Origin: a virus
Lineage: Duplodnaviria; Heunggongvirae; Uroviricota; Caudoviricetes
Direction: 5' to 3' (one strand)
IMG/VR virus record: IMGVR_UViG_3300038412_000041
DNA: 33,101 nucleotides
The position numbers and the translations under genes were made by a program. Below the pieces are notes generated by a model. It did not search any database. It was not told where the DNA came from and saw only the letters and a program-made list of their open reading frames with translations. This document shows, one piece after another, positions 254 to 19,587 of the stretch (the stretch's first letter is position 1; each line of letters opens with the position of its first letter).

Positions 254-3200
254 TTATTTCTTGGTTGTATTAGTAACACGCAAGTTGTTGAAATCGGCCA
301 AAACCTCTTTCTTGTTTTCGATATCAAACTCTGCAAACATTTTCTTCAAGGCAGTCTGCATATCCTGCTTACTCTTAAAGAATGCTTGAAGTTCTCCGCC
401 CCATGGACCAGTCCACTTGACTCCAGGTACTGCAACACTTTTAACCTTGCTCAAAGACGCTGCATTAACTCTGGCATTCAAACAGATATTTACAACACTG
501 CTTTGCTTCTGTCCAACAATGTAAAGATAAGGCTTGATTACACCAGCAGGAGCCGCTTTAATCTGTTCAAGGTTAAAGTTTGTTCTTTGACCTTTAGACA
601 GAGCTTGCAAGAACTTTTGAATGTCCTTGTGTTCAGTCCACAGTTCAAGATCAGCCATTAAACGCTTTCTATACTTTGGCTCAATCTTAACCTTCTTCTC
701 AACAGCAGCAATCCATGCACCAAGGGCTTTAGGAGACAATACTCTTGCGTCATAGTATTTTTGAGCAGGCAGGAAACCGTAAGCTTTGAGTTGTTTCTCA
801 GCAGCAACTACGTTCTCATTTTCTGCATCAACAGCAAGACCAGGGTAATTGTCGTAAGACATTACGAACAACTCAAATCCGCCTAACTTGCCTTCAGGGT
901 CTTTCTCTGGCAAGCGTTTGTTGGTTTTTCCTGTCTTTCTGCCAACATCAACTTCTTTTGGAACAACAGGTGTATCTTTAGCACCAACCTTTTTAGCAAT
1001 CATAGACCGCACATCCAAGCCAGAGATAGAAGGTTTAGTGATTACCCAACATGCAGCCAGTGGTACGGAAGCAGTACTACCATCAGGAGTAGTAACTCGT
1101 ATAGTGTTTGGTTTACCACCACTAACCGAGTTATAATCCTTGGCTATACAATCTCCGTATGCTGTATGGACGCTCAACCCTTCTGGCGACCAGTTTGGAT
1201 CATCCCACATAATAGGCGCATTCTTGGCACGTTTATTGGTTGATACATACTCCAAGAAAGGGACAAGACCTAATGATTCAGCACCATAAAGTTGCATACG
1301 TGGAGTATAAGGCATCTTCATTAAGAAGCCAGAATCAGGAAGTACTTTGCCAGTAGGCATCGTATATCCTTCTTTGCGACACTGTGGGCTATCTCTAAAC
1401 GTGGCATACTCACGTTCCTGAATCTGCTGATATTGCTCATAAGCTTGAAAGAACTCTCTACAACCACCTTCAGGGTCTTGCCAGTCATTAATGTTGAAAA
1501 TGTTCTTCTTAGTAAGTCTTAATGGAGGTGGTGCTTCCAAATTCATATATTCAGGTGAATTTGAGTTATAGAATTTTACGGTAGCAATCAGTTTACTAAA
1601 CATCCTGCTGTTCTTAGTAACGTCAATCGAACGGTCAACAAATACCCAGTCAAAGTGAATACCATGACCACCGTTTTCTTCCATACGTGGATCATTCATG
1701 GTAGGTCTATTCATTCTAGACTCACCCTGCTCTAACGTGCCGTAATTCCAAACAGTCTCAAGTCTAATGATTCTAGACACGACTTGAAGGTTATGTCCGG
1801 TATTAATAGATTTTTCGCAACCAACCAAAATCTTTTTCTTTGGGTTAGACACAAACTGCGCCAGCAACTCGTCACCATTAGCAGAAACATAATGAATTGC
1901 CTGTTCTTGCAAATCTGCAGGCAAAGCTTCATATACAGCAGTGGCAGAGTTTACATATTGGGTCCATACAATAATCTTCCCAACTGTACCTGAGTTCAAA
2001 TGCTGCTTAATGATGCTGATTGTTTTCAAGGTCTTTGGTGATATAGAATCTTTACCAGTCAAAGATTTTCCGAGAGGATCAGCAGTCGGTGCCGTCAAGA
2101 AGCCTTCTAGACGAGCCAAATAAAAGTTTAGAGGACCATCCAACAGATCGTCAAGGTTGTCATCACTATCTTCTTCCTGTTCATCAGCGTCAGCATCCCT
2201 AGCACCAGTCTTGAATGAATTACGAAGAATTGGGTTTTCATTTAAAGCAATATCGAACTCGGCTCTGGTCTCCTTCAAGATTGCCAAGTACACAAGTTTT
2301 TGAGCTTCCGTCATTTCAACAGGATAGAAAACGTCTTGTCTTCTAGGAAGCAACGCAGCCCACTCTTTTCTAGACACACTGATAAAGGAAGATGTTTCAG
2401 CCATCTTATCTCTAATCAGCTTTTGCGCCATAGGTATAGGAGCGTTTCTAATATTGCCTTCATCAAAGTATCTTTCAGCAAATGCAGCAGTGTCACCGAA
2501 AGCTTGAGGATCAATTAGACCATACTCTCCTACAACGTCAGTTAATGAGTCACTGATGTAGGTACCAGACATTTGTACCTTGTACGGAATGGAAGAAATG
2601 AGACGCATAACTTCACGATTCCGATTACCGTTACGTGTCTTAAGGAAATGTGATTCATCCATAATGCACATATCCCAAGGAACACGCTTCAGAAACTCTG
2701 CATTCAAGGAAATCTTTACGTCAGTATTACCATACGTAAAGTTAACGAGTCTCGTAGAGTTTCCTTTTGGAGCAATAAAGTCATAGTCTGTGACAAAGAT
2801 CGTGTTTACCGGAGCGCCTTTGCAAAGCTCAATGAGTTTCTCTTCTCCCCACCGTTTATCTTGCAAGGCAGCAGAAGAAATATTAACCACGTTCATCTTG
2901 CCTGCAAAAATCCATACAGCATCATTGATGTAGTTGCTGACAAGATTTTGAGGACAAAGCACTAATGGGCGTTTAACCAAACCTTCACCGATCAAGTATG
3001 CCGCATACATAAGACCTAGAAGAGTCTTACCACCACCTGCATCAACACTGAACACAGCATTTTTAGGCTTGTTCTTGAGATAGTTCCACACTTTAACTTG
3101 GTGCGGCATCAATTCTACCGAACCACTAACGTATGGGATGTTAGGCATTTCAATATCATCAATCGGATCAAGATCAGGATTGATGTAAGCTTTGCGCTCT

Positions 3201-4939
3201 TCCAAGTCCTTGGCTTCTACCTCATGCAGATTGCTTCCATAATGGATCAGTACTTTCAAAGTACCTATCGTATCAAGCATAGATGGAACAGATAGAGAAC
3301 CAAAAGCTGCATCAGGATTCTTCTCAACCTCTACTAGAACCTTAGAGTAGTATTCAAAAATAGCCCGCAGTACACCAGAAGGAGAAGTTTTAGATAGCAA
3401 AGTCATGGTAGGATGACTTTGATGTTGCTCAACCCAACCGTGCAAAGTTTGGTACTCTTCAGGTGTTAAATCTCTTTCTTCGTTTGGCGAACGTCTATTA
3501 GAGTAGGCTTGGTTCAAGGCATCAATAGCAATAGCCATTGAACCCCACACATCTTTATTTTCAAACTTTTGCCGAGCGTTACCCATATCTTCGATTGAAG
3601 TGTATGGGTCACTATATTCTGGACCAGAAGGAAGTTTAAAACCTAAACGCTTTCCGTGATCTTTAGCGAAAGCAAAGGCTTTGCTCACTTGTGTGGATAT
3701 GGAAGCAGTGTCAACCAAAGAAGCTTTCAAGTAGGCAAGGATTTGATTAGCTTGAACAGGTCTGAACATACTAATGTCACGAATACGGACACTAGCGTTT
3801 TCACCTGTATATGCCATTTTGCCATTATGCCAATCAACATACATTAGCATGTTCTGGCCTCTAGGCTTCAACTTGCGTACTTGTCTTCCGTCTCTACTCG
3901 TATCCGTTACGTATTCATTAGATTCAGGATCAACCGTATCTTGTCGCGTCCAATCACCATCTGGTTGCATTCCACCTTCTTCAATAGCAGCTTCGACAAA
4001 CTCTGGAGAAATACTTTCTCTTGGAATCCAAGTAATAATGCCTTTATTAGTTACTGACAAATCTTGGTCATTGGTTTGAGGTTGAAGAATGATGCCTGTT
4101 TGTTCGTTATCACTCGCAATTTTGCTTACTGCTACGATATGAGGAGAATAAGAACTCTCACCATTACCATTCTTTTTAAATACGTCAGCTTGAAGGCGTG
4201 AGACATACTCTACAAGTTGATTATACTTAATGCCGTCACCTTCTTCTTGAGTGATGTACTCGGCCATAACATCACTAATAAAGTATTCGGCAAAGGCATG
4301 CCATATTCTAGCAGACCAAGCAGTAACTACCAAGGAACGCGAGTAACCATTATCCGGCAAAGTTTTCTTAAGGACTTCTAGTTGACCTTCGCCCATTCTA
4401 TCATTAAACGCTTTTACGCCAGGAGCACCAATAAGTCTGAAGCCACGGATGGCGATTTCACAGTCATGACCTATTTCTGGATCAGCGTCAGGTAGAGTAG
4501 CGAATACTTTTTCAAGACCTGCTGCAAGATTTCCAATATTGATATCTACAGGGCTTTCTAAATTCCAAACACCAGGAATCTTTGCTTCGATTTGTGCCTT
4601 GAGTTGGTTAGCATTGATATTAAAGAACTCAGGATAAATATCCATTATTGAAGGCACAGAAAAAGATGGCATGTACACCAAGAACCCTTTATTTACTTTT
4701 CGGATTCTAATGAGTTCAGCCAACTCCTTATCTGTAAGTCTGTTATATTCCTTAGCCATATCATCTTCGTTTTCCAGACGTGCTATAGGACTTCCACCTA
4801 ACATCTGTGAAAACTGATTCTTGGCGTATGCATAGGCCCTCACAAGTCCACCAGGACTTCCAAAAGCACCTAGCATTGTTGACTCTTCTAAGGCATGCAG
4901 CTTGCTCTTGTCCAAGTTGATAACAGAGATTTCTTTCAT
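254..4939 (-). CDS. Large SNF2-family (superfamily 2) helicase/ATPase, 1561 aa
   Basis: Motifs: I (DAGGGKT), Ia (LVLCPQNLV), II (MDESH), III (MSGT), IV (IIVWTQY), V (SINTGHNLQ), VI (EQGESRMNR). Extensions of about 600 aa (N-terminal) and about 400 aa (C-terminal) are unassigned. ATGA overlap with the upstream gene. Confidence 0.9.
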   Translation of the reverse strand: MKEISVINLDKSKLHALEESTMLGAFGSPGGLVRAYAYAKNQFSQMLGGSPIARLENEDDMAKEYNRLTDKELAELIRIRKVNKGFLVYMPSFSVPSIMDIYPEFFNINANQLKAQIEAKIPGVWNLESPVDINIGNLAAGLEKVFATLPDADPEIGHDCEIAIRGFRLIGAPGVKAFNDRMGEGQLEVLKKTLPDNGYSRSLVVTAWSARIWHAFAEYFISDVMAEYITQEEGDGIKYNQLVEYVSRLQADVFKKNGNGESSYSPHIVAVSKIASDNEQTGIILQPQTNDQDLSVTNKGIITWIPRESISPEFVEAAIEEGGMQPDGDWTRQDTVDPESNEYVTDTSRDGRQVRKLKPRGQNMLMYVDWHNGKMAYTGENASVRIRDISMFRPVQANQILAYLKASLVDTASISTQVSKAFAFAKDHGKRLGFKLPSGPEYSDPYTSIEDMGNARQKFENKDVWGSMAIAIDALNQAYSNRRSPNEERDLTPEEYQTLHGWVEQHQSHPTMTLLSKTSPSGVLRAIFEYYSKVLVEVEKNPDAAFGSLSVPSMLDTIGTLKVLIHYGSNLHEVEAKDLEERKAYINPDLDPIDDIEMPNIPYVSGSVELMPHQVKVWNYLKNKPKNAVFSVDAGGGKTLLGLMYAAYLIGEGLVKRPLVLCPQNLVSNYINDAVWIFAGKMNVVNISSAALQDKRWGEEKLIELCKGAPVNTIFVTDYDFIAPKGNSTRLVNFTYGNTDVKISLNAEFLKRVPWDMCIMDESHFLKTRNGNRNREVMRLISSIPYKVQMSGTYISDSLTDVVGEYGLIDPQAFGDTAAFAERYFDEGNIRNAPIPMAQKLIRDKMAETSSFISVSRKEWAALLPRRQDVFYPVEMTEAQKLVYLAILKETRAEFDIALNENPILRNSFKTGARDADADEQEEDSDDNLDDLLDGPLNFYLARLEGFLTAPTADPLGKSLTGKDSISPKTLKTISIIKQHLNSGTVGKIIVWTQYVNSATAVYEALPADLQEQAIHYVSANGDELLAQFVSNPKKKILVGCEKSINTGHNLQVVSRIIRLETVWNYGTLEQGESRMNRPTMNDPRMEENGGHGIHFDWVFVDRSIDVTKNSRMFSKLIATVKFYNSNSPEYMNLEAPPPLRLTKKNIFNINDWQDPEGGCREFFQAYEQYQQIQEREYATFRDSPQCRKEGYTMPTGKVLPDSGFLMKMPYTPRMQLYGAESLGLVPFLEYVSTNKRAKNAPIMWDDPNWSPEGLSVHTAYGDCIAKDYNSVSGGKPNTIRVTTPDGSTASVPLAACWVITKPSISGLDVRSMIAKKVGAKDTPVVPKEVDVGRKTGKTNKRLPEKDPEGKLGGFELFVMSYDNYPGLAVDAENENVVAAEKQLKAYGFLPAQKYYDARVLSPKALGAWIAAVEKKVKIEPKYRKRLMADLELWTEHKDIQKFLQALSKGQRTNFNLEQIKAAPAGVIKPYLYIVGQKQSSVVNICLNARVNAASLSKVKSVAVPGVKWTGPWGGELQAFFKSKQDMQTALKKMFAEFDIENKKEVLADFNNLRVTNTTKK

Positions 4940-8435: not shown

Positions 8436-9617
8436 TTAACTTGAAGAGTTGAAGCTACCGACTACCTCTACTTGGATATTCTTTGTTTTGTTGTCCAAAT
8501 ATATGATTGACAGCTTCCTACCATCAACAACGTTTCTGGAGGATCGTAAGTATCTTGTCGTTTGGACCTTTATTTGTTCGTAATCTTTGAACAGAGGTTT
8601 GATAAAGTCTCCAGTGTTCTTTATAAACCAATCTATAAAGGCAAGCAACAATTCATTAGTGCAGAGCAGATTCTTCTTTGTAGGCTTAAATTGAACTAAT
8701 GTCATCACATTCTCAACACCGACATTGGATGAACCTAAGAAAGCTGCAACTGGATCAGCATTCCAAAAAGATATAGGTGAATCAGGGTCATGCCAATCTA
8801 TCTTGGAGCCTATAGTGAGTTCCTTTTTGGTTCTATAAGTCTTGAATAGCTTCTTAGACTTGACACTACCAAGTCCACGAATAGCTACTAGAAACATCAC
8901 TAGCTTGTCAAAATCATCCTGCTGGTGGTTAACGGATATTTCTATTTGTGGTTTCTTAAACTTGCCTGTGTATCTGTCATGCAAAAGTGCGTCTAGATTA
9001 GGTATGTAGTACTGGAACACTTCGCGTTTGGCTTTATATGATAGAGCAGACCACCAAGATAAGGCATGTTTTTCGTTGAAAGTTTTTGCAGCAGAGGTTA
9101 TTGGTTCTTTGTAAGCATAAGGTTGTTTAGTATCACCGTTTTCCAACCAATCCTTAAACACATCTGGATGTACTTCTGTGATAGTACCTAAACCGTTCCA
9201 GTCATCTGTATAGTTTTCTAGATAACCATACATGGCTGCTTTGGTATTAGGCCAACCGAGCATTATTTTATGCTCATCGAAATCAGTAGAATCCTCTACC
9301 AATTGATCTACTATATGGAATGGACCTACGTAATCTATGTCGGTACCTGGTTTGATAAAGATATCTAAATGATCTTTGTCTTTTCCGATAGTTCCTTTAA
9401 TATAACCATAATGGCTCTTCATTGGAGGCCACTCTGGTCTACGTCTTGAACCTGCTGGATTCTCAATAGCTATATCAAGACCACACAAACGAAGATGGCC
9501 TTTCTTATACATGCCAGCTTGTTTGTGTTCATCTAATGGTTCAGGTCCATCATTCAGAGGAGAAGTTGCTGCATCATGTGCCAGATCATCAATATCTGTT
9601 AATTTTTTAATCTCCAT
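8436..9617 (-). CDS. InPase (inorganic pyrophosphatase-like, polyvalent-protein type) domain fused to an unassigned C-terminal domain, 393 aa
   Basis: AHDAATSPLND..P...K.AG.YKKGH....GLDI.IENP.GS.R...HYGYIKGT.G.D.DHLDIFI is the characteristic InPase pattern of phage polyvalent proteins. The C-terminal ~215 aa are unrelated to it. Confidence 0.82.
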   Translation of the reverse strand: MEIKKLTDIDDLAHDAATSPLNDGPEPLDEHKQAGMYKKGHLRLCGLDIAIENPAGSRRRPEWPPMKSHYGYIKGTIGKDKDHLDIFIKPGTDIDYVGPFHIVDQLVEDSTDFDEHKIMLGWPNTKAAMYGYLENYTDDWNGLGTITEVHPDVFKDWLENGDTKQPYAYKEPITSAAKTFNEKHALSWWSALSYKAKREVFQYYIPNLDALLHDRYTGKFKKPQIEISVNHQQDDFDKLVMFLVAIRGLGSVKSKKLFKTYRTKKELTIGSKIDWHDPDSPISFWNADPVAAFLGSSNVGVENVMTLVQFKPTKKNLLCTNELLLAFIDWFIKNTGDFIKPLFKDYEQIKVQTTRYLRSSRNVVDGRKLSIIYLDNKTKNIQVEVVGSFNSSS

Positions 9618-9849
9618 TTTTGTCAGCCTTGAACATTCCGATAAACATTAATAGAAAGAGATAGAGGGTCATTACAGCGTACATTATGAGGTGCAATGCA
9701 ATGACAAAAGCTAGAGGGAGCCAGACCGGAGCAAATACTAAAAGCCAAGGAATGTTTGCTATCTCCAAGGCTTTTAATGCCACAAGAAATCCCATGATTT
9801 TTAATGGTAGATAAGAGTCAAACTTTAGACTAAGAAATTTTGGAAGCAT
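9607..9849 (-). CDS. Small membrane protein, 80 aa
   Basis: Almost entirely hydrophobic. LKALEIANIPWLLVFAPVWLP resembles the LKL.G.I.WSW..V..P.W small phage membrane family. Confidence 0.65.
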   Translation of the reverse strand: MLPKFLSLKFDSYLPLKIMGFLVALKALEIANIPWLLVFAPVWLPLAFVIALHLIMYAVMTLYLFLLMFIGMFKADKNGD

Positions 9850-10465
9850 TTGTTGCGTCTCCTTGTTGACTCTTTAGTTTGGACACTAGTGTTTCTAAAG
9901 GACCTCGAATATTAAGTATTTCTGACTGTGAAGCGTTTATAGGCAAACTATCAAGACGATTATTTAATTGCAGGATTAATGTTCTCAACTGATCTTGCTC
10001 TACATTTATCGTGTTAAAAGAGCCATCATCTAACTCTTCCTTTATAGACTCCCACTCTATAATCTCCCGCATTCTGTCTTCGCCTACTTGTCTTAATTGT
10101 GCTTGCTTGAATAGGCACTCGTCCAAGTCTACTTTATACTCATCACTCTTAAACACATCTTCTTCAGTACTGATTAGGTCTTTGAGCTTTCTTATCTTTA
10201 TTTCGTTTCTTCTATAACTAAAGCCTTCAATCATCATATTTTCAAGCATTAATGTTTGTTCTCTTACTGCTTGCCAATATTTTGAGGCTTTCGTAGGAAA
10301 AGAAGCGTCATTGAGAACTACATAACGCATTTCAACACTGGTCCTATATACCTGTCGTTTTTCCCAAGCTTCAGTTAGAGTAGGTAACAGATGGTGTAGA
10401 TTGTCTATAGCATCTTCCGAAAGAAAACCTGGTAGATTCTCACTATACTTTTTGACAGGTATCAT
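9830..10465 (-). CDS. Conserved hypothetical coiled-coil protein, 211 aa (possible fibre chaperone)
   Basis: GAGGT RBS. The motif LND..FPT.ASKYWQ.VREQ...D.MREI..W...K.ELDDGSF is one I recall from aquatic phage fibre/oxygenase loci; this is not verified by search. Confidence 0.75.
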   Translation of the reverse strand: MIPVKKYSENLPGFLSEDAIDNLHHLLPTLTEAWEKRQVYRTSVEMRYVVLNDASFPTKASKYWQAVREQTLMLENMMIEGFSYRRNEIKIRKLKDLISTEEDVFKSDEYKVDLDECLFKQAQLRQVGEDRMREIIEWESIKEELDDGSFNTINVEQDQLRTLILQLNNRLDSLPINASQSEILNIRGPLETLVSKLKSQQGDATNASKIS

Positions 10466-10476
10466 AACATTTTACC

Positions 10477-11073
10477 TCAAGCAAATTCAGTCCAACCAGT
10501 CATTATGTACTTCTCATTAGAGAGTGGAGGATTGCCGCGATGCGTCCACGGATAGTTTGGTGGAAATATCAGCAGTCTTCCTTTCTTTGGAGATATACGT
10601 TTTGACAGGTAGAGAAATTCAGTTTCTCCACCTTCCTCAACGTCATTTAGATACAGCAAATAAACTCCAACGCGGAAGGCCATGTTTTTAGTGCCATCTT
10701 CAGAGTGCCAAACGTGGTATCCTCCACAAGGCATCGTCTTTTGTAACTTGTATGTATAAATCGTGTGCTGGTCATAGTCATATAATGTACTATAACGTTC
10801 CAGATATTCCTTATAGCACTGTTCCCAAAATACAGTATTAAACTCACCTATGTAATTCTGAATGTTTGGATAAGAGAATGCAATCTCTTCAATGTTTGCA
10901 GGATTCAAACAAACTGAATTGTCATTCTTAAACTTCTCTTGCTCAGGTCGCTCAAATGTCCTGTTGTTATTCTTGCACCAATCAAAATACTTGATTAGGT
11001 CTTCACAAAACTTGTCAGAGAAGTATCCATCATACATACCTACAAAATTATCGTATACCGATTTGGTAGCCAA
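10477..11073 (-). CDS. 2OG-Fe(II) dioxygenase (prolyl-4-hydroxylase-like, cyanophage type), 198 aa
   Basis: GYHVWHSE (HxE), YLLYLNDVEEGGETEF, FPP..PWTHRGNPP (distal His), KYIMTGW (2OG-binding Lys). TTG start 7 nt after AAGGGG. Confidence 0.9.
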   Translation of the reverse strand: MATKSVYDNFVGMYDGYFSDKFCEDLIKYFDWCKNNNRTFERPEQEKFKNDNSVCLNPANIEEIAFSYPNIQNYIGEFNTVFWEQCYKEYLERYSTLYDYDQHTIYTYKLQKTMPCGGYHVWHSEDGTKNMAFRVGVYLLYLNDVEEGGETEFLYLSKRISPKKGRLLIFPPNYPWTHRGNPPLSNEKYIMTGWTEFA

Positions 11074-11084
11074 GATATTACCCC

Positions 11085-11693
11085 TTATCTAAATGTAGGA
11101 CCACAAGACCACACTACCAGAGTTCTTCTAATACCTTTTGTTACTGGCGTAACTCTGTGTAAAACGTAACTAGGAAATACTGCTACTAAGCCTTTCTTCT
11201 TCATAACTGCTTGAGGTTCGCTTGTAGTCAGTATCTCAAGATCACCACCTTCATATTCGCTGCTATCAGACAATTGTAAGACTAGTGACAGCTTTCTTGG
11301 AGGATGCCCACTACTGCTGAATCCTGAATCAAGATGCCAAGTATAGTGGCCTTCTCTCTCACCGTTATAAACTGTATATTGAAGGTGTTCACTGAAACCA
11401 TAGATATCAAAACGATAAAATTGACCATTCAACATTCTTAAGATGTGAGCCAATCTATCATAAATCCAACCTGTGTCTTGATTATATTCTATCCACGATA
11501 TTGAGGATTCTCTAATCTTTGAATAGTCATCCTCTTTATCTGCTCCGTGAATTGTTGCCTTATCTTTTTCTAGTGCATCACCTATTGAAATGATGGATTT
11601 AATTTCATCCTCAGTAAATCCATCATCCCATGTAACAAACGGATGTTCAGCCAAACCGAAACTAGGCATAGGTGGAAATCTGTAATCGCTCAT
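11085..11693 (-). CDS. 2OG-Fe(II) dioxygenase (PKHD/P4Hc-like), 202 aa
   Basis: HYTWHLD (HxD), RKLSLVLQLSD..EYEGGDL, FPSYVLHRVTPVTKGIRRTLVVW..GP.FR. Confidence 0.92.
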   Translation of the reverse strand: MSDYRFPPMPSFGLAEHPFVTWDDGFTEDEIKSIISIGDALEKDKATIHGADKEDDYSKIRESSISWIEYNQDTGWIYDRLAHILRMLNGQFYRFDIYGFSEHLQYTVYNGEREGHYTWHLDSGFSSSGHPPRKLSLVLQLSDSSEYEGGDLEILTTSEPQAVMKKKGLVAVFPSYVLHRVTPVTKGIRRTLVVWSCGPTFR

Positions 11694-11733
11694 ATCAAAC
11701 CTTACTTTTGTTATTGAAACAAAGTATTTACAA

Positions 11734-13167
11734 CTAGTAAAGTGATGTTTGTCTGTTCCAACTAACGTTCACTTTTCCAGGTAATACTCCAGTTCCAATA
11801 GTAACAGCGTATACACCTCGCTTAATAAACGTTGTGTTTACATTGTTTGTAGGTGCAACAGAGCTTGTGCCAGAACCTCCTGAATTGCCAGCTTGTCCAG
11901 GCCAAGAGTTAGGAGCAGCACCACCTGGATTACCAGAATAACCGCCATTTCCAGGAGCACCATTACTACCGGCTGTTCCTGGATTACCTGGATTACCGGC
12001 AGTACCTGCAACACTAGAGTTGCCAAGAGTACCAGGGTTACCAGCAACACCACCATTGCCTCCATTACCACCACCAGGATTGTACATAACACAGTTACCA
12101 CTAACATTACAAACCATGTTATATGTAGCACCAGTTCCACCAGACCCACCAGTTCCACCACCGCCACTACCAGCAGCACCGGCATTACCTGGATTACCAA
12201 ATAAAGAGAAAGCCAAACCATTAGGAGCCGCAGTATCGTAGGCTAGATTACCGGGACCGTAGTTACCTGTATTACCAGCAGAACCTCCAGGACCACCGAC
12301 ACCACCAGTTCCGTTATTACCTGGATTGCTTGCATTACCGGGATTGCCTGGATTACTAGCAGCACCAGCACTACCAGGATTACCAGCACCACCACCACCA
12401 CCACCATAACCACCAGGACCACCGACTCCACCATTACCAGCGGCACCACCAGGTACTGGATTACCTGGGAATGATATAGTTCCAAATACTGTTGCATTAC
12501 CAGCACCACCAGGACTACCGACGGTACCTGGATTACCAGGAGTCCCACTACTACCTGGACTACCAGAGCCGCCACTACCACCATACATACCAGGCCAAGA
12601 TGTAGGTGCAGCTACTCCAGAGCCACCAGGGTTACCAGCCGTACCACTCATATACAAAGATGATTTACTACCTGGATTACCACCAGCACCGGCATTACCT
12701 GGACTACCACCAGCACCACCTGGACCACTTGGCCCTGCACTACCGGCGGAGCCTACATTTCCACCTGTTGCTGGTGTGTAAAGACTAGTGCTATATGATA
12801 GAGTACCACTGATATACGTTCCAGGACTACCAACACTACCAGGACCACCACCGCCAGGATTACCAGTGGAACCAGCGTTACCAGGATCACCAGCTAAACC
12901 TCCTCGATTGCCAGTACCAGCGCTACCTACTAATGTTTGACCTGGACCACCAACACCAGCGTATCCAGAGCCACCAGGATTACCAGCATAACCGATACTG
13001 CCAGAATTACCCGGATTACCGGGACTACCTGGATTACCAGTACCAGGAGCACCAGCAATAACACCAGAAAAGACACCAAAAGGTACTTTAAAATTACCAG
13101 AAGTGTTTATAGTTGCCGATCCTGCAGGAGCAATGTTTGGTCTTAAAAACTTTAAAGTCATTTGCAT
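11734..13167 (-). CDS. Glycine-rich Gly-X-Y (collagen-like or polyglycine-II) virion fibre protein 2, 477 aa
   Basis: Interrupted Gly-X-Y runs with roughly 35 X-Pro-Gly motifs, about half of them Asn-Pro-Gly. Non-repetitive termini match the 488-aa paralogue. Confidence 0.85.
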   Translation of the reverse strand: MQMTLKFLRPNIAPAGSATINTSGNFKVPFGVFSGVIAGAPGTGNPGSPGNPGNSGSIGYAGNPGGSGYAGVGGPGQTLVGSAGTGNRGGLAGDPGNAGSTGNPGGGGPGSVGSPGTYISGTLSYSTSLYTPATGGNVGSAGSAGPSGPGGAGGSPGNAGAGGNPGSKSSLYMSGTAGNPGGSGVAAPTSWPGMYGGSGGSGSPGSSGTPGNPGTVGSPGGAGNATVFGTISFPGNPVPGGAAGNGGVGGPGGYGGGGGGAGNPGSAGAASNPGNPGNASNPGNNGTGGVGGPGGSAGNTGNYGPGNLAYDTAAPNGLAFSLFGNPGNAGAAGSGGGGTGGSGGTGATYNMVCNVSGNCVMYNPGGGNGGNGGVAGNPGTLGNSSVAGTAGNPGNPGTAGSNGAPGNGGYSGNPGGAAPNSWPGQAGNSGGSGTSSVAPTNNVNTTFIKRGVYAVTIGTGVLPGKVNVSWNRQTSLY

Positions 13168-13182
13168 GATTGGATTTCCATA

Positions 13183-14649
13183 TCAATGAGGTAGAGCTAT
13201 TTGTCTTCCCCAACTAACAGTGACTATACCTGGTAAAACACCAGTCCCTATAGTTACAGGATAAACTCCGCGAAGAGTAAACGTTGTAGGAACAGTAGTG
13301 GTTGGAGAAATGGCTGCACTTCCAGCTTGTCCAGGTTGTCCATACATACCGGGCCAAGTAGATGGAGGTGTTCCACCTGGACCACCAGCACCTGCTCCAG
13401 CGCCGGATGCACCAGTAGCTCCAACACTCCCATTATTACCAGCAACTCCGTTAACTCCAGGACTACCAGCAGTACCTGGATTACCAGGTATACCAGGTTG
13501 ACCAGCACCACCGCCTGTACCACCACCTGGATCATATAGTGCCGCATACCCAAGTGATGAATTTTCAACAATCCATGTTGAACCTGTACCACCATTACCA
13601 CCACTACCGCCAGTACCAGCAGGTGCTGCTCCAACAGTACCAGCCGTTCCACTTGTACCAGAATTGCCGACTAGCGCCCATTGGACTGATGTATTGACAA
13701 CACCTGAATAATAGAGAGAACCAGCAGTTCCAGAGCCACCAGGAGCACCTGCAGCACCACCAGGACCACCGCTTCCACCAAGACCTACTGTTCCATTAGT
13801 ACCGTTAGTACCGGCAGTTCCAGGAGTACCAGCACTACCTTGACTGCCAGACGTACCAGCAGCACCAGGAGTTCCACCAGCACCACCGGGACCACCAACT
13901 CCACCAGCACCACCAGCACCACCTGGAGCAGGCTGCGGTTGAAAAGTTATAGCGCCAAAAGAAGATGCTGTACCTTCACCACCTGGACTACCATTTGCGC
14001 CAGCTACGCCAGGTGCACCAGTTGGACCTTGTGCTCCCCAATTGCCACTACCACCATACATACCAGGCCAACTGGCTGCTGGACTTACACCAGATGTACC
14101 TGGACCACCAGCCGTTCCATACATTGATGATGTAGGTAATCCATTAGAACCAGGAGCTCCTGCATTACCAGATTGTCCAGGACTACCACCACCTTGTGGG
14201 CCAGTACCACTAGTACCTTGTGAACCAGCGGTTTGAGCAGTATTAAGACTTGTTACCCAGTTGGCTGCTGGTGATCCAGGAGCACCGTATGGATTTATTG
14301 GAGCATAAGCACAACCATCACCACCTCTACCACCACCACCAGGTTGTCCCCAAGCTCCTCCAGTACCAGAGCCGCCAGCAGTACCTCCAATACCGGCTGC
14401 ACCACCGATTCCGGCTGAACCACCAGGACCACCGACTCCATTATAACCACTAGTGCCGTTAGTACCATAACCACCAGGACTACCAACAGTACCAGGTTGA
14501 CCGTCTGTTCCAGGAGTTCCAGTTCCAGCTACTCCAATGACTTCACCAGCTAAAACACCAAAAGGCATCCTAAAGTTGCTGGATGCCGTTATGGTGACTG
14601 AACCAGGAGACATAATGTTAGGACGTAATAGTTTAAGCCCTATTTGCAT
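13183..14649 (-). CDS. Glycine-rich Gly-X-Y (collagen-like or polyglycine-II) virion fibre protein 1, 488 aa
   Basis: Interrupted Gly-X-Y runs (TPG, QPG, SPG, APG). N-terminal LRPNI..GSVTITASSNFRMPFGV; C-terminal RGVYPVTIGTGVLPG.V.VSW.RQ. Confidence 0.85.
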   Translation of the reverse strand: MQIGLKLLRPNIMSPGSVTITASSNFRMPFGVLAGEVIGVAGTGTPGTDGQPGTVGSPGGYGTNGTSGYNGVGGPGGSAGIGGAAGIGGTAGGSGTGGAWGQPGGGGRGGDGCAYAPINPYGAPGSPAANWVTSLNTAQTAGSQGTSGTGPQGGGSPGQSGNAGAPGSNGLPTSSMYGTAGGPGTSGVSPAASWPGMYGGSGNWGAQGPTGAPGVAGANGSPGGEGTASSFGAITFQPQPAPGGAGGAGGVGGPGGAGGTPGAAGTSGSQGSAGTPGTAGTNGTNGTVGLGGSGGPGGAAGAPGGSGTAGSLYYSGVVNTSVQWALVGNSGTSGTAGTVGAAPAGTGGSGGNGGTGSTWIVENSSLGYAALYDPGGGTGGGAGQPGIPGNPGTAGSPGVNGVAGNNGSVGATGASGAGAGAGGPGGTPPSTWPGMYGQPGQAGSAAISPTTTVPTTFTLRGVYPVTIGTGVLPGIVTVSWGRQIALPH

Positions 14650-14653
14650 GATA

Positions 14654-14980
14654 TCACTTCTTTCCTAGATTATAAAGCTCCAAAAAGTTGCTGGCCTTTA
14701 ACACTTCTAGATCAGTAAAGTATCGACGAGGATACTGTGATACAGACAAATCATCATGAACTTCTGTGTAGATCAGAATTGGGAACTTGGTAAACTTGGT
14801 ATCTTCCCACCAAGTACTTAAAGGACCAAAGACTTGAGGGTGTTGGGCATCATCTGAATAGTGTAGGACTTGATGCTTTACGCCGTTGTCCGTCAAAAAC
14901 TTTTTCATTTCCCAACAAGCGTGTGCATCTTCAGTGAGACCTGTATAAAGATTGATATCATCAAGCTTTGTTATAGCCAT
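14654..14980 (-). CDS. Glutaredoxin/thioredoxin-fold-like protein, 108 aa, single Cys
   Basis: NLYT....AHACWEMKKFL.DNGV.HQVLHY...TKFPILI has glutaredoxin-like spacing, with AxxC in place of CxxC and an FP cis-Pro-type motif. AAGGAG RBS. Confidence 0.6.
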   Translation of the reverse strand: MAITKLDDINLYTGLTEDAHACWEMKKFLTDNGVKHQVLHYSDDAQHPQVFGPLSTWWEDTKFTKFPILIYTEVHDDLSVSQYPRRYFTDLEVLKASNFLELYNLGKK

Positions 14981-14993
14981 TTTCTACTCTCCT

Positions 14994-16181
14994 TTAATAA
15001 ACATTAGCCATTGTAAGACTACCAAACCAAAATGCACCATTGTTAGTGGTGAAGAAGGCAAGCACATCCACTTGGTTAGCACCTGTGGACAAAACTGGTA
15101 ACGTACCTTCTGTATAGTGAGCGTTTGTTACAGACATTGTTCTATTGCCTGTTGCATCTTGTCTCAATATCAAAGTCGCGGATATTGGAGCATTTGATAC
15201 AGGAGGCACATTTATGAATGTGAATGCTACATTATTAGCTAAAGTTATATCAAAAACATTAGCTAATGAAAAATCCAAGTTGTAGGCTGAAGCTGAGACT
15301 GTGGCTGTCAATACTGTTTCCTTAAAACCAGCCGTGTACATATAGTACAAGTCACTCTGGTAAATAGTAAAAGTATCTCCGACAGAAGGAACTGTGCTTA
15401 AAGTGTTGACGACAAAGGCATTTGAAGCAGCAGATTGAACGTATCGCGCAATACCTTTATCTGCACCACTTGTAAACTCTACAATGAACCTGTTTGATGC
15501 TACTGCCGTATATATCTGTGCAGGCAATCCAGTACATGCAATAGATGTTGCTGTAGTACCACTACCTACAACACCAGAGTAGTATGGAACTCTATGAGTT
15601 GAGAAACTCCACAAGGCATTGGCACTTTCTCTCAAAGCTAGTGTAGGATTACCATTTTCATCACCGCTCTGTATTGAATAAGCATTAGGCAACGTCAGAT
15701 TGCTGGCTGAAGAAAGGTTATCTGGCAAAGCTATTTCAATAAGGTTTGCTACTGATAAGTTTTGATTGGTAAATGTAATGTTGCCTACAATATTTGAATA
15801 AGTCAGTGCTGCAATAAATGTAATGGTGTTTCCAGGAGTGCTACCAGTAGTTGCTGTCTTTTCTTGGAGTGCTGAAAGGGAAGTCAGAGCAAACAATGTA
15901 CCACTAGATAAGTACAAACCAACTTCACCGAAAAAGAAGTTACCTACAGTCTGATCGAGCTTTACTGTGTAGTCTAGCTGGTCATTGTTTACCACAGAAA
16001 AATTGTAGATAGTTCCTGTATACAATACAGTTCCGTGAAGTGCAGTATCCGTCACTGCAGGTGTGTAATTATAAGCACTACCTACTTGAACAGATGTTAT
16101 CTGTATAGGAATACCAGTAGCTTGTGCGTTAAGCAACGCTGCAATACCACCATTGGTTATCGTAAAATTATAAGCTGACAT
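14994..16181 (-). CDS. Short tail-collar fibre / baseplate-attached fibre protein (DUF3751-like N-terminus), 395 aa
   Basis: N-terminal ITNGG.A.L.A...G..I.ITS.QVG...GNF.FGEVGLY...G.LFA matches P2 gpH/DUF3751-type anchors. C-terminal domain LDFSLANVFDITL...TLILRQDATGNRT...P.LST.AN.VDVL.F. Confidence 0.8.
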   Translation of the reverse strand: MSAYNFTITNGGIAALLNAQATGIPIQITSVQVGSAYNYTPAVTDTALHGTVLYTGTIYNFSVVNNDQLDYTVKLDQTVGNFFFGEVGLYLSSGTLFALTSLSALQEKTATTGSTPGNTITFIAALTYSNIVGNITFTNQNLSVANLIEIALPDNLSSASNLTLPNAYSIQSGDENGNPTLALRESANALWSFSTHRVPYYSGVVGSGTTATSIACTGLPAQIYTAVASNRFIVEFTSGADKGIARYVQSAASNAFVVNTLSTVPSVGDTFTIYQSDLYYMYTAGFKETVLTATVSASAYNLDFSLANVFDITLANNVAFTFINVPPVSNAPISATLILRQDATGNRTMSVTNAHYTEGTLPVLSTGANQVDVLAFFTTNNGAFWFGSLTMANVY

Positions 16182-16205: not shown

Positions 16206-17735
16206 TTACGACAATACCTCAGTTGATCCAAGAAGTGTACCAGTTGATCCAGTGCCTCCATATACAACTGAAGAAGCATTGTTACCCGATCCACTAGCAA
16301 ATACTCTGCCTGTATTCATATTTTTACCGTAAAAACTCCAAACACCATTGTTGTAAATCTCAGCACCTGCATAAACACTAGATGTTGTAGGACCACCAGC
16401 AACAACTAGAGAAGAACCTGTAGCAACGGAACCGACTCTTGCGTTATGTAGATTTGGTCCAGCAACCCATGTAGTACCATTATATGTTTCACTTGTGTTT
16501 AGAACTGAAGGTGTGTTGTCCTGTCCAGCAATAGCTATTGCATTGGTAGGATTTCCTAGACAACTTAGAAACTCTCTGGCTGACAACATTGATCCACCAG
16601 CAGTCCAAGAACCTCCATTATAAGTCTCGGTTGTAGCTATCGTAGAAGTTCCGTTATTTCCTCCAACTGCTAAAGTTGACGTATTGCTTCCAACTAAAGC
16701 TAGTCCTGATCTGGCAGTACCCATAGCAACTCCAGAAGTCCACGCAGTACCGTTGTAGGACTCGACTGCGGTAGTAGGAGTTGTTCCAGTATTTCCACCA
16801 GCACACAAGGCAGCAGTTGGAACACCAGTACCACCATGATTCTGTCTAGCAGTTATCAAAGAAGAACCAGAAGTCCACGAACCTGCATTGTATAGCTGAC
16901 TTGTCGAAACAACTGCGGAACCTGTATTACCACCAAAAGCTAAACTGGTGATGTTTGACCCACATGCTGCTAAAGCTGAAACAGAAGTAAGCATGTTTGA
17001 GCTTGTAGTCCAAGCAGGATTTGGCAGGATCATTGTAGTGTTCGTTATAGATTCGGCAGCAGACATACTTGCAGTCATTGCTAACCCGTAGTATACGGCA
17101 CCTATAGAAATGTTTCTGAACACCACGTTTGCAGGTGCTGCAAACTCTAAAAGTACACTAAAGTCGTTAACGTTAACGGTCAAATTAAAATTAGTGTAGA
17201 CCGTCACATCATAGTGACTTGTAGGAAACCACATTCCGCCTTGCCAAACTGGAGTACCAATACCAGGGTCACCCTCTGTTAAGAAATTATGGTACGTGTT
17301 ACCTGGTCCAACTTCTGCCCACAACTGTTGAATCTGCACCACCAAATCATTTGTAAAGCCTAAATAGTTTCCCCAAGATGGAGTTCCTTGTTCAACGAGA
17401 AACTGCACAGAGTGTTTAATAAACACGTTGTACACGTCTCTAGGCATATTTGATAGACCTGCATAACTCATACCGACTAGAGCAGCTAACGATCTTCTGG
17501 TTGATGTAGGATTCCACTCAATGCCGTTTGATTGGTAATCGTTACCATCAAGCATTGCTACACCTGTTTTGGCAGCTAACGCATCTGGATGGAAGTCGTT
17601 AACGTCTCGTATGTAGGAAAGTTTCTGTGTCGGTATATCAACATAATTTCCTAATACAGTATCTAAAGCATTAGCCAGATCAACCCAAACTGGATTGTCT
17701 TTCAAATATAGAGGTAGTCTGTCTGCGTAACCCAT
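16206..17735 (-). CDS. Baseplate wedge protein (gp7/gpI-like N-terminus) fused to a six-repeat Kelch-like beta-propeller, 509 aa
   Basis: Lies between the gp6-like and fibre genes; N-terminal RLP.YL......DL..ALD. From about 17020 to the end are six ~45-aa repeats W....M..AR......G......GG.......E.YNG. Confidence 0.8.
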   Translation of the reverse strand: MGYADRLPLYLKDNPVWVDLANALDTVLGNYVDIPTQKLSYIRDVNDFHPDALAAKTGVAMLDGNDYQSNGIEWNPTSTRRSLAALVGMSYAGLSNMPRDVYNVFIKHSVQFLVEQGTPSWGNYLGFTNDLVVQIQQLWAEVGPGNTYHNFLTEGDPGIGTPVWQGGMWFPTSHYDVTVYTNFNLTVNVNDFSVLLEFAAPANVVFRNISIGAVYYGLAMTASMSAAESITNTTMILPNPAWTTSSNMLTSVSALAACGSNITSLAFGGNTGSAVVSTSQLYNAGSWTSGSSLITARQNHGGTGVPTAALCAGGNTGTTPTTAVESYNGTAWTSGVAMGTARSGLALVGSNTSTLAVGGNNGTSTIATTETYNGGSWTAGGSMLSAREFLSCLGNPTNAIAIAGQDNTPSVLNTSETYNGTTWVAGPNLHNARVGSVATGSSLVVAGGPTTSSVYAGAEIYNNGVWSFYGKNMNTGRVFASGSGNNASSVVYGGTGSTGTLLGSTEVLS

Positions 17736-17736
17736 A

Positions 17737-19587
17737 TTAATTCAATCCTTGACTTCGACCGACAGCTATATTAGGAGTGACCACTATATTTGTACAGTTA
17801 GGATAGTAGATACCAAAACTATCTATCTGTGGTGGAACTACACTTGTATTTGGAGTACTCCAAGTATCAGTATATGAACTAGAGGAACCTGGTATCTGAG
17901 CTAACAAGCCAACATTACCAGAAGTACCTCTTATCACATAGATACGCACAAATTCATATCCACCAATAGGGTCCCAAGATACTTCTACGTTTGTACCTCC
18001 ACTAGCACTAACCGTATATGATATAGCGATAGGTAGAGACTCACCAGACGTTGTTGTTGCACTAGCTGAGATAGCTGACGCACCAGGAGTATACGCAGAT
18101 ATTCCAGAAACAAAGTATGTAAGGTAGGTTCCGCCAACGGAAGAGCCAGTGCCTAATGCAGTCTCTACTACATTCAAGTCTGTTAGATTAAACGAAGTAG
18201 CAAGATCAGAAGTAGGGCCTAGCAACTTTGTGTATTGTATTGCAGGATCAGATTGCATTGCTGCATTAGTTATATCTGACATATACACAGTTTGACCTAT
18301 ACTACCAAGACCTAAAGCAGTATATGTTTGCAATGCGTTTTCCGCATTAGTCTGAGCTTGAACCAAGTCTGCTGTAGGATCGCAAAAAATAGACATTTGA
18401 ATCTGATAATTTACAGGGACTGGCGTAACGAAATATAGATTTGTAGAATCCATACTTCTAGCTTCAAACCAATCCTTAAAATTCTGTTGTTGCGTTGTAT
18501 TCCAAACAGACGTTGTTAAAAGCGCCGTCCTTATTGCATTCATGTATGTAACAATATTAGGAGCTACTGTTCTCTGACCGTCAAGCTTTGCATCAATAAC
18601 GCCAGGGTATGTAACGGCTACAGCATTGTATTCTGCATTGTTGACTGCTCTATCAAAAGCAGCGAACAAAGCAGGGCCAACCTTCTGATATGTTGACGGA
18701 TTTGCTTGATCTGCTCCACCTACCAAACCAGAAGTAGCTACTGCTGTTATGTAGTTGGCATTGGAATTGTAGGTTATAGTTGTTCCGTTGAATGACGGGT
18801 TGTTACCCAATACACCATTACAAGTAGCATACGTAATGCTAACTGTTTCATTAGGTCCAGGCATTGTGGCAAAATTGTTATTACCAAAGTTTAGTTCTAG
18901 TTGACCTAACTTAGTTGTTCTATCTTGTACAGCCGGTTGAGGAGCAGTAAGAGTATTTGTACCTGCACTAACTGAAACTGCTGCTGCATAATGCCACAAA
19001 CCATCAGTAACTACAGGTATGTCTGAACCAGCTATGGATACCTGAACATCAACATCTGAAACGGTAAAGCTCTGATCTGTTGAAATAAACGTTTGAAATG
19101 GATTACCAGTACCTTGTACTTGTGCGTTAACTACAGTACCCAAATATAAATTTACTGACTGTGAGGTTTGTGTAGATGAAAATAGTATTGCTGTTCTATT
19201 GAACAAAGCACCTGATGGTGAATTAAATACAGAGTATGCAGGAATTGCATAAGGCAGCCCATCATTTGGTTTTGTTATAGTGACAGTACACGTAGCAGGA
19301 ATCTTTCTAGTAAGCCTAACCGCATCCATACGCATTGCAGCAAAGATGCTGGATTTTAGACGTGCTGTATTAGGAAAAGCTTCTTGCAAGGCACGTTCAT
19401 TTGCAAATATTGCAAATGTAGTATTGGTTGCTATAAACTCTAGCAGAGATTGGCCTGTACTATCTGCCAACATGTCCTGCCAAATAGTTCTTGTTGGAGT
19501 GTTTGAAGATACAAGTTCAGCCTGCAAATCAGCAACAAGCTGCTGTATATCTACACGAACAAGACTTGTGTTAGCATTAGTTGCCAT
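17737..19587 (-). CDS. Baseplate wedge protein (T4 gp6 / P2 gpJ-like) with C-terminal FN3-like extension, 616 aa
   Basis: STGQ.LLEFIA......ANERALQEAFP.TARL.SSI...; FDRAV...EY..V...YPGV.DA; located directly downstream of gp25. Confidence 0.88.
   Translation of the reverse strand: MATNANTSLVRVDIQQLVADLQAELVSSNTPTRTIWQDMLADSTGQSLLEFIATNTTFAIFANERALQEAFPNTARLKSSIFAAMRMDAVRLTRKIPATCTVTITKPNDGLPYAIPAYSVFNSPSGALFNRTAILFSSTQTSQSVNLYLGTVVNAQVQGTGNPFQTFISTDQSFTVSDVDVQVSIAGSDIPVVTDGLWHYAAAVSVSAGTNTLTAPQPAVQDRTTKLGQLELNFGNNNFATMPGPNETVSITYATCNGVLGNNPSFNGTTITYNSNANYITAVATSGLVGGADQANPSTYQKVGPALFAAFDRAVNNAEYNAVAVTYPGVIDAKLDGQRTVAPNIVTYMNAIRTALLTTSVWNTTQQQNFKDWFEARSMDSTNLYFVTPVPVNYQIQMSIFCDPTADLVQAQTNAENALQTYTALGLGSIGQTVYMSDITNAAMQSDPAIQYTKLLGPTSDLATSFNLTDLNVVETALGTGSSVGGTYLTYFVSGISAYTPGASAISASATTTSGESLPIAISYTVSASGGTNVEVSWDPIGGYEFVRIYVIRGTSGNVGLLAQIPGSSSSYTDTWSTPNTSVVPPQIDSFGIYYPNCTNIVVTPNIAVGRSQGLN

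Follow-up and report, generated by a model that had tools for sequence, protein, structure and literature searches.

Hydroxylation of Gly-X-Y proteins is carried out in animals by collagen prolyl 4-hydroxylase (P4H), an alpha2-beta2 enzyme with protein disulfide isomerase (PDI) as beta subunit, which acts at the X-Pro-Gly motif alongside prolyl 3-hydroxylase (P3H) and lysyl hydroxylases. Among viruses, chlorovirus PBCV-1 encodes proline-rich repeat proteins thought to be substrates of its own P4H, whose in-vitro substrates are Pro-Ala-Pro-Lys-type repeats and not Gly-X-Pro, and Mimivirus encodes collagen-like proteins together with the bifunctional lysyl hydroxylase/glycosyltransferase L230. 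A P4H of Bacillus anthracis accepts collagen-like peptides as substrates in vitro (PMC8968730); no natural substrate has been established for it, and its gene is not known in a conserved cassette with a collagen-like gene. Here we analyze a six-gene cassette in the IMG/VR virus record IMGVR_UViG_3300038412_000041, from a phage of the Caudoviricetes; the window is the whole stretch of 33,101 nucleotides (nt). The cassette encodes a thioredoxin-fold protein of 108 amino acids (aa), two glycine-rich proteins (488 and 477 aa), two 2-oxoglutarate (2OG)-Fe(II) oxygenases that we call ox202 and ox198 by their lengths in aa, and a 211-aa protein (Table 1). An earlier interpretation of the same DNA, the sequence-only reading, had taken these six genes for a candidate fibre-maturation system of the phage's own. 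We find that glycine-rich genes of this family are always accompanied by such oxygenases, which suggests, as far as gene neighbourhood and family kinship can tell, that some phages chemically finish their own fibres. Full-text literature searches found collagen-like phage and prophage proteins and no phage-encoded hydroxylation of them, as the sequence-only reading had supposed; the papers found treat phage 2OG oxygenases solely as auxiliary metabolic genes.

Enzymes of this kind are thus already known from animals, a chlorovirus and B. anthracis, and the cassette shares features with each. Of the solved structures, the B. anthracis P4H (PDB 3itq, 5hv0) is closest to the ox198 family; it is likewise a small single-domain microbial protein, with its Lys ten residues beyond the distal His. 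It has H-x-D where ox198 has H-x-E, while the phage cassette contains another oxygenase besides, of a different type; BclA, a collagen-like exosporium protein of the same bacterium, carries Pro in X (Gly-Pro-Thr), whereas the window proteins carry it in Y. The PBCV-1 P4H (PDB 5c5t) is virus-encoded, belongs to the same Pfam family and represents the second-best class of PDB matches of ox198 (1e-6), but it comes from a eukaryotic virus and has no adjacent glycine-rich gene, second oxygenase or thioredoxin-fold gene. Mimivirus offers the precedent of one virus encoding both collagen-like virion-fibre proteins and an enzyme that modifies them, but its target is Lys, which is then glycosylated, while the phage glycine-rich proteins are almost without Lys and there is no glycosyltransferase in the window region. 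With the animal system the phage shares the X-Pro-Gly motif, the putative action of several 2OG oxygenases on one Gly-X-Y protein, and a thioredoxin-fold protein, in the phage a candidate partner; the catalytic domain of the collagen P4H-II alpha subunit and LH3 are weak matches of ox198, and P3H1 is a match of ox202. The phage enzymes, at ~200 aa, lack the peptide-substrate-binding domain, and the phage thioredoxin-fold protein, unlike PDI, is single-domain, has no CxxC and is encoded beside a glycine gene and not beside the enzyme genes. The best solved relatives of ox202 are the PKHD-type proteins PiuC/YbiX (PDB 3dkq, 9ghl; 7e-15), which share its H-x-D...H...R motif but are bacterial proteins linked to iron uptake.

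A recurrent unit of glycine-rich and oxygenase genes

The reverse search used only the N-terminus of the glycine-rich proteins as query (first 50 residues, in an alignment of four sequences) and was therefore blind to the oxygenases; it returned 26 IMG/VR loci and 26 loci from JGI metagenomes. A PF13640-type oxygenase lies within ~1.3 kb in all 40 assessable loci, i.e. those whose contig reaches the relevant side of the gene (23 from IMG/VR, 17 from JGI), with no counterexample, although many of these loci are near-copies, so that the number of independent lineages is by our estimate about a dozen and not 40. The remaining 12 loci were left out because their contigs end within the glycine gene or at its border. 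Homologous fibres commonly occurring without oxygenases, the finding that the sequence-only reading had named as telling against it, were thus not seen (0 among 40). Its view of the glycine genes and the two oxygenases as one unit holds through four gene orders, and we take the glycine-rich genes and PF13640-type oxygenases to form a conserved unit, judged by gene neighbourhood. No relative of the glycine family N-terminus was found in 185,579 bacterial and archaeal genomes, and the collections searched yielded neither a prophage nor a cultured phage with the cassette.

The comparison contigs of this analysis are labelled L001-L210. The glycine gene is followed by ox202 and then ox198 in the window and most loci; by a small open reading frame (ORF), a DUF6065 gene and ox202 in L098, L100 and L101, with L130 ending inside its DUF6065 gene; and by ox198 and then ox202 in L126. 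It comes last, after ox202 and ox198, in L097, L102, L119-L123 and L128, sometimes with DUF6065-like and PhyH-like genes between. DUF6065 (PF19541) takes the place of ox198 in L098:11525-12229, L100:10471-11178, L101:7099-7803 and L130:1905-2553, with a 69-76-aa ORF ahead of it in L098, L101 and L130; an ox198 gene was not found in these DUF6065-type loci, nor was a solved relative of DUF6065. Among loci without a contig cut, an ox202-type call is missing only in L128, in which one of two ox198-type ORFs may be ox202.

Where the contig reaches, the nine loci with the closest ox198 (61-71% identity) have a tail-collar gene, a thioredoxin-fold gene, a glycine gene, ox202 and ox198; L007 shows the two oxygenase genes only, its contig starting just upstream of both. 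The genes flanking the cassette vary sharply: in L009 they are T4-like genes for baseplate and sheath (sheath/tube-like ORFs), in L001, L007 and L098 genes of lysis type and different tail genes, and in L008 a primase-like gene. The cassette therefore sits in several phage backbones. A maximum-likelihood tree built from 86 ox198 homologues groups 15 cassette-linked enzymes in a single clade that is supported and exclusive, and places the ox198 genes of L097 and L102 as a second, distant cassette-linked pair.

Some cassettes have three or four oxygenase-type genes around one glycine gene (L121:4269-4835, L123:3333-4001, L102:1363-1941); the additional ones are PF13759 in L102 and, read by eye, PhyH-like and DUF6065-like ORFs in L121 and L123.

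The putative substrates, the enzymes and the small proteins

The two glycine-rich proteins are paralogues (52% identity). Gly makes up 31.6% and Pro 9.4% of the 488-aa protein; the 477-aa protein has 31.7% Gly, 9.9% Pro and 10.7% Asn. With the Y position counted as G-x-P-G and the X position as G-P-x, Pro in Y outnumbers Pro in X by 17:2 in the former (binomial p 7e-4) and by 23:1 in the latter (binomial p 3e-6), and there are 28 and 37 X-Pro-Gly sites, respectively, the commonest context in the 477-aa protein being G-N-P-G (14 sites). Both the bias toward Y and the dozens of X-Pro-Gly sites had been read correctly from the sequence at the outset. The bias is a family trait, with 650 prolines in Y and 39 in X across 19 members and 116:5 in the L009 homologue. 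In the Gly-X-Y runs of the family (3035 triplets) the X position holds Asn (35%), Ala (18%) and Thr (14%), and the Y position Ala (31%), Pro (21%) and Gly (18%); charged residues are few in most members, with only 1-7 Lys per protein in 16 of 19. In prokaryotic collagen-like proteins Pro is the most frequent residue at X and Thr at Y, and most are unhydroxylated (PMC8968730), in agreement with what the sequence-only reading had said of Pro and of hydroxylation. L008 has both registers side by side: its upstream tail-collar-type fibre (L008:3-2330) has a classic Gly-Pro-Thr collagen-like region, 53 of whose 94 triplets have Pro in X and 50 of which have Thr in Y, and the glycine protein adjoining the oxygenases has Pro in Y only, the opposite register to the neighbouring fibre.

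The Gly-X-Y register is often broken in the window proteins, whose longest runs are 23 triplets (488 aa) and 11 triplets (477 aa), and both score below the Pfam Collagen (PF01391) threshold (16.2 and 17.5 bits vs 27.2). Homologues reach up to 1775 aa, with uninterrupted Gly-X-Y for 137 triplets in L002 and 87 in L009, and that of L003 scores as collagen at 49.3 bits. Conservation across the family is concentrated in ~40 residues at the N-terminus, with Pro29 and Asn21 conserved in its strand, and ~25 residues at the C-terminus. The AlphaFold2 model of the 477-aa protein is confident only at ~10-60, 205-245, 345-362 and 430-477, which are islands outside Gly-X-Y; the Gly-X-Y tracts have a predicted local distance difference test score (pLDDT) of ~30 in this monomer model. 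In VIA-align the separated confident segments align jointly onto single compact beta-sandwich domains (~100 residues, root-mean-square deviation ~3.3 A), including a Klebsiella phage baseplate protein and TNF/C1q-type jelly rolls, at Z of 6.6 or less, which is below the tool's own noise level and rated possibly non-specific, so that the fold likeness is a lead and not an assignment. Foldseek of the model against AlphaFold DB clusters gave noise only (E of 0.5 or more). In the model, the Gly-X-Y tracts would loop out of and re-enter one small split beta-sandwich, a topology that would be easier to reconcile with antiparallel packing of polyproline-II type, or with helices paired on their way out and back, than with a single parallel triple helix.

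The nearest described family is Gly_rich_2 (PF21722). The PF21722 Pfam model does not match the window proteins even at E up to 10, while hhalign of the N-terminal alignments of the two families gives a probability of 87% (E 3.9e-6, 21 columns). Both have the N-terminal strand motif T-F-x-x-S-G-x-F-x-x-P-x-G-V and the C-terminal strand G-x-V-x-V/I-x-W/Y, and in the glycine family, as in Gly_rich_2, terminal strand motifs enclose glycine-rich loops in one domain. Gly_rich_2 proteins occupy the same place in tail-fibre regions and often lie directly upstream of ox202/ox198-type genes. They differ in having poly-Gly loops, where the window proteins carry long Gly-X-Y tracts whose X is Asn and whose Y is Pro or Ala, and the typical oxygenase-adjacent ones are Pro-poor. 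The glycine family probably consists of derived Gly_rich_2 proteins whose glycine loops have grown into Gly-X-Y tracts. The sequence-only description of Gly-X-Pro fibre proteins therefore stands for Gly and Pro content and for Pro in Y and fails for the classic collagen stalk: a fibre of N-anchor, stalk and C-knob was rejected on the sub-threshold Collagen score, the interrupted runs and the modelled loop topology.

Both oxygenases match PF13640, ox198 at 1.6e-11 (45.4 bits vs a cut-off of 27) and ox202 at 1.2e-14 (55 bits). A profile of the ox198 family (20 homologues) matches collagen-type prolyl and lysyl hydroxylases exclusively in the PDB: B. anthracis P4H (3e-14), PBCV-1 P4H (1e-6), 6iuq (another P4H), human collagen P4H-II alpha (0.012) and LH3 (0.016). 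H120, H123, H178 and K188 vary hardly or not at all across 86 homologues, 98% of which have E125; K188 lies ten residues after the distal His, H178. The ox202 profile (19 homologues) first finds PKHD-type 3dkq (7e-15) and PiuC (2e-14), followed by B. anthracis P4H, the EF-Tu prolyl hydroxylase PPHD (4iw3), algal P4H, P4H-TM, PHD2 and P3H1; H120, D122, H179 and R189 are invariant in 33 homologues. The characterised relatives found for both enzymes are prolyl or, weakly, collagen lysyl hydroxylases, with the exception of EctD, one unnamed 2OG oxygenase and the PiuC type. We rejected ox202 as a YbiX/PiuC orthologue; it is a relative only, far below the NCBIfam equivalog cut-offs (67 bits vs 143 for the best-scoring model, NF003974; 37 vs 399 for the YbiX model). 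Because their metal and 2OG ligands are invariant or nearly so, ox198 and ox202 are probably active members, of two different subtypes, of the protein prolyl/lysyl-hydroxylase superfamily, and the call of two 2OG-Fe(II) hydroxylase-type enzymes made in the sequence-only reading is upheld by the above-threshold PF13640 matches and the intact predicted active sites.

Both enzymes also match phrog_3531, labelled 'ferrochelatase', and an ox202 homologue is annotated ferrochelatase in some cyanophage records (e.g. NC_070962.1). This label, found also in the pelagiphage literature (PMC9599517), may be a misnomer for 2OG oxygenases.

The 108-aa protein had no match in Pfam, PHROG or NCBIfam scans, in tblastn against 50,697 phage records, or in a related-locus search that used it alone as query. 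Its AlphaFold2 model (alignment of 14 homologues) has a mean pLDDT of 93.4 and matches glutaredoxin 1 best in the PDB by Foldseek (3msz; E 3.7e-4, probability 1.0, template-modelling scores 0.63/0.78), with further glutaredoxins, thioredoxins and glutathione S-transferase N-domains following; the Pro before strand 3 (P67) is invariant in the family. There is no CxxC. The only Cys, Cys22, is Ser, Asn or Gly in homologues, and the family alignment has no second one. The PDI-like redox role is excluded because the CxxC is missing and the single Cys is not conserved, so that of the comparison with PDI in the sequence-only reading the thioredoxin fold survives and a redox function does not. Modelling thus makes this a redox-dead thioredoxin-fold protein, a candidate chaperone or partner, for which a PDI-like partner role is only an analogy. 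In most related loci its homologues directly precede the glycine gene (gap 2-23 nt), and they do not stand beside oxygenase genes.

The 211-aa protein has no family in the Pfam, PHROG and NCBIfam scans and falls in helical, phage-only clusters (Atlas model). It has 417 relatives in IMG/VR, of which the best 79 loci (L132-L210) were examined. In 78 of these an oxygenase of the ox198 and/or ox202 type follows the 211-aa gene, and in 68 one to four Kelch-repeat genes, homologous to that of the window, lie upstream of this block; the 79 loci belong to one lineage and count as one further independent observation, not 79. They hold no glycine-rich ORF in 0.52 Mb. Conversely, the 211-aa gene was not found in any of 17 glycine-protein loci checked. 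It was accordingly rejected as a core member of the glycine cassette, in which the sequence-only reading had placed it as a coiled-coil partner, and would belong with the oxygenase pair and not with the glycine proteins. The window joins two recurrent sub-modules that share the oxygenase pair, one of tail-collar, thioredoxin-fold and glycine gene(s), the other of Kelch gene(s) and the 211-aa gene.

The synteny of Kelch, 211-aa and ox198/ox202 genes is very abundant in marine phages (e.g. L054:3-5517), and both of the loci scanned for 2OG-FeII_Oxy_5 (PF13759), L054 and L061, have such genes interspersed.

Candidate targets of the oxygenases

We propose that the two glycine-rich proteins are components of a virion fibre or adhesin, which would be attached via the tail-collar-type protein encoded upstream, and that the two adjacent oxygenases would hydroxylate them before or during assembly. 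This would happen in the infected cell, since the enzymes need Fe(II), 2OG and O2. The likeliest product would be 4-hydroxyproline at X-Pro-Gly sites, with ox198 and ox202 perhaps taking different sites or positions, and hydroxylation might stabilise polyproline-II or collagen-like packing. The 108-aa protein could assist the glycine-rich proteins as a partner or chaperone without redox function, and the 211-aa helical protein could be an accessory of the oxygenase pair. The substrate, the target residue, the effect and the roles of the two small proteins are what we infer here from gene content, enzyme family, catalytic residues, the Pro-in-Y bias and the invariant linkage, which are observed directly. 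We put the probability that the oxygenases hydroxylate Pro of the glycine-rich fibre proteins in the infected cell at about 0.52. Taken as a whole, the sequence-only proposal of a phage-encoded fibre-hydroxylation system keeps its conserved gene unit, its enzyme family and its prolines in Y and loses the PDI-like redox role, the classic collagen stalk and the membership of the 211-aa protein; Asn hydroxylation and later glycosylation, which it also considered, find no support here. The more ambitious version, i.e. a mobile cassette in several unrelated phage types that makes hydroxyproline in the phage's own adhesins, with a new architecture of very long Gly-Asn-Pro / Gly-X-Ala tracts that leave a small beta-sandwich and are packed into polyproline-II or collagen-like hairpin bundles stabilised by hydroxylation, two dedicated hydroxylases and a Cys-less thioredoxin-fold chaperone, is tentative, and the odds lean against it.

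Several points weigh against prolyl hydroxylation of these fibres, besides the modest number of independent lineages given above: (i) With DUF6065 in place of ox198 in some loci, a collagen-P4H-type enzyme is not indispensable. (ii) The first iron motif of ox198 is H123-S-E125, H-x-E and not the usual H-x-D; the hidden Markov model alignment with B. anthracis P4H is inexact around it, and the additional invariant H120 is nearby. (iii) For PiuC/YbiX, the closest solved relatives of ox202, a substrate is named nowhere in the papers found. (iv) The window proteins fall short of Pfam Collagen, and their predicted loop topology would be ill-suited to a canonical parallel triple helix. (v) Relatives of ox198 (40-50% identity) lie directly downstream of Pro-poor Gly_rich_2 proteins, with 1-2% Pro and no X-Pro-Gly, in at least 16 loci, and the oxygenase pair stands beside Kelch proteins in 68 of the 79 loci devoid of glycine-rich ORFs. 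(vi) The best cultured relatives of ox198 (40% identity), in cyanophages S-RIM12 and P-RSM1, are encoded between gp23 (major capsid) and gp3 (tail completion) with no glycine protein near. The phage oxygenase superfamily as a whole thus appears not to be tied to X-Pro-Gly; only the cassette-linked lineages would be.

Some of these loci also speak for a different target in the fibre module: another residue (Asn, Asp, Lys or Pro at C3), a core residue of the beta-sandwich, or another fibre or baseplate protein such as Kelch. The strongest of the alternatives, we still consider this unlikely. ox198 relatives follow Pro-poor PF21722 proteins, and in one ox198-type clade 6 of 7 members have a Gly_rich_2-type neighbour; of the glycine-rich neighbours of remote oxygenases that were scanned, 7 of 8 match PF21722 (9e-33 to 2e-5). 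Together with the 211-aa gene, the pair follows Kelch proteins in the 68 loci noted above. It is also the ox202 type, with nearest relatives of no known substrate, that is called everywhere except L128 and contig-cut loci, and Asn both fills 35% of X positions and, like Pro29, is conserved in the N-terminal strand (Asn21). However, the characterised relatives are mostly prolyl or, weakly, collagen lysyl hydroxylases (the exceptions being EctD, the unnamed enzyme and the PiuC type), Lys is nearly absent from the family, and the strong conserved bias of Pro toward Y would be left without explanation. To our knowledge, the known Asn and Asp hydroxylases belong to other families. Glycine-rich ORFs are positionally enriched near remote oxygenases, 16 of 20 falling within 1.5 kb against a simulated mean of 10.2 (P 0.004), a moderate excess on which the case for prolyl hydroxylation is not built.

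Somewhat less probable again is a role in auxiliary metabolism or host takeover, in which the oxygenases would act on host proteins, on nucleic acids or on metabolites and would accompany the fibre genes only because fibre regions are hot spots of accessory-gene exchange in blocks. Their phrog_61 is classed auxiliary metabolic, the literature treats phage 2OG oxygenases in the same way, with substrate unknown (PMC9599517, PMC11706807), and PPHD, which hydroxylates EF-Tu, is among the bacterial relatives. Several such genes per genome, at a distance from the fibres, are found in hundreds of cyanophages and pelagiphages; in Pelagibacter phage HTVC008M five genes of oxygenase type lie next to neck genes. 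Against this explanation, adjacency is kept through the four gene orders and the transfers between backbones with 0 counterexamples in 40 loci, the cassette-linked enzymes form their own clade, and the lack of a glycine-rich ORF in the 79 control loci (0.52 Mb) indicates that such ORFs are not general in these regions. It is improbable that the proteins are unmodified adhesins of polyglycine-II/polyproline-II helix bundles, with the oxygenases and small proteins as non-catalytic assembly scaffolds or chaperones, as the kinship to Gly_rich_2, a loop topology favouring antiparallel packing over the collagen triple helix and a thioredoxin-fold protein without catalytic cysteines might suggest, since every metal- and 2OG-binding residue is kept in 33 and 86 homologues, which argues for catalysis.

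Few "auxiliary metabolic genes" of marine phages are commoner than those for 2OG-Fe(II) oxygenases, whose substrates are unknown. If the glycine-rich fibres are indeed hydroxylated on Pro, part of these would be structural-maturation and not metabolic genes, this would be the first enzymatic hydroxylation of a bacteriophage virion protein found in the literature searched, and it would overturn the working rule that collagen-like sequences of prokaryotes and phages go unhydroxylated. Small single-domain hydroxylases with a matched natural Gly-X-Pro substrate would be useful for hydroxylated recombinant collagen-like materials. The linkage in 40 of 40 loci and four gene orders makes the question directly testable with few proteins.

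In many more distant phage contigs, glycine-rich tail proteins that are mostly Pro-poor are encoded just upstream of ox202/ox198-type genes: L016, L019, L020, L023-L026, L029, L035-L038, L043, L045, L046 and L052. In Xanthomonas phage PhiXhv-12 (L105, PV764601.1, 5856-9664), by its baseplate protein the closest cultured relative, an ox202-like gene is found in the baseplate module between two paralogous uncharacterised proteins. Both of these have the motif P-P-T-L-x-S-V...E-F-G-G near the N-terminus, and by eye a number of glycine-rich proteins from other loci seem to begin with comparable stretches.

Gene layout of the window

Every long ORF in the 33-kb window is on the minus strand, and together these ORFs make up a myovirus tail module, with the sheath, a tape-measure/transglycosylase protein, two tube-like proteins, and the hub and wedge proteins of a baseplate. 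By megablast the region has no match among 50,697 phage records. The kinship of the baseplate J-like protein to those of 220-230-kb phages makes the source phage probably a large, uncultured myovirus. After the wedge genes come the Kelch-repeat gene, the tail-collar-type fibre gene with its PF12571 domain, and the cassette (Table 1); a PF12571-domain homologue precedes the cassette in most related loci, and this fibre protein is the probable anchor for the cassette products. From the fibre gene onward the gaps are 13, 4, 15, 40, 11 and 11 nt. A Shine-Dalgarno-like stretch stands ahead of each of the six genes, and no terminator-like site was found between them. The ORF coordinates, with the PF12571 gene upstream and the baseplate genes before it, confirm the six co-oriented genes at 4-40 nt spacing that the sequence-only reading had described downstream of the baseplate fibre gene.

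Table 1. Coordinates of the cassette and other tail-module features in the window, in gene order
Feature	Position	Strand	Remarks
Sheath	28299-30704	-	Part of tail module
Baseplate J-like protein	17737-19587	-	At most 31.5% identity to those of 220-230-kb phages (Xanthomonas phage PhiXhv-12, Ralstonia phage phiRSL1)
Kelch-repeat protein, baseplate-associated (509 aa)	16206-17735	-	phrog_27227 8e-31
Tail-collar-type fibre protein (395 aa)	14994-16181	-	PF12571 N-terminal domain 6e-15, residues 2-130; many tail-fibre PHROGs
Glutaredoxin-fold protein, 108 aa (predicted fold)	14654-14980	-	4 nt upstream of first glycine-rich gene
Glycine-rich protein 1, 488 aa	13183-14649	-	Modelled split beta-sandwich with interrupted Gly-X-Y tracts, Pro in Y
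Glycine-rich protein 2, 477 aa	11734-13167	-	Paralogue of protein 1, richer in G-N-P-G
ox202, PKHD/PiuC-like 2OG-Fe(II) oxygenase, 202 aa	11085-11693	-	PF13640; H120-x-D122...H179...R189
ox198, collagen-P4H-like 2OG-Fe(II) oxygenase, 198 aa, TTG start	10477-11073	-	PF13640; H123-x-E125...H178...K188; >597 relatives in IMG/VR
Helical phage protein, 211 aa (predicted)	9830-10465	-	No family; putative partner of oxygenase pair rather than of glycine proteins

Across the two glycine-rich genes (11700-14700) the G+C content rises from ~0.39 to 0.50-0.52 because of their GGN and CCN codons, with no sign of foreign origin. Just downstream of the cassette lies a gene for an InPase-domain protein (8436-9617; PF18823, 1.4e-38), and beyond the cassette's downstream end one for a 1561-aa SNF2-type helicase (254-4939). 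The domains of both match giant DarB-like and polyvalent virion proteins, and the two may be ejected internal proteins.

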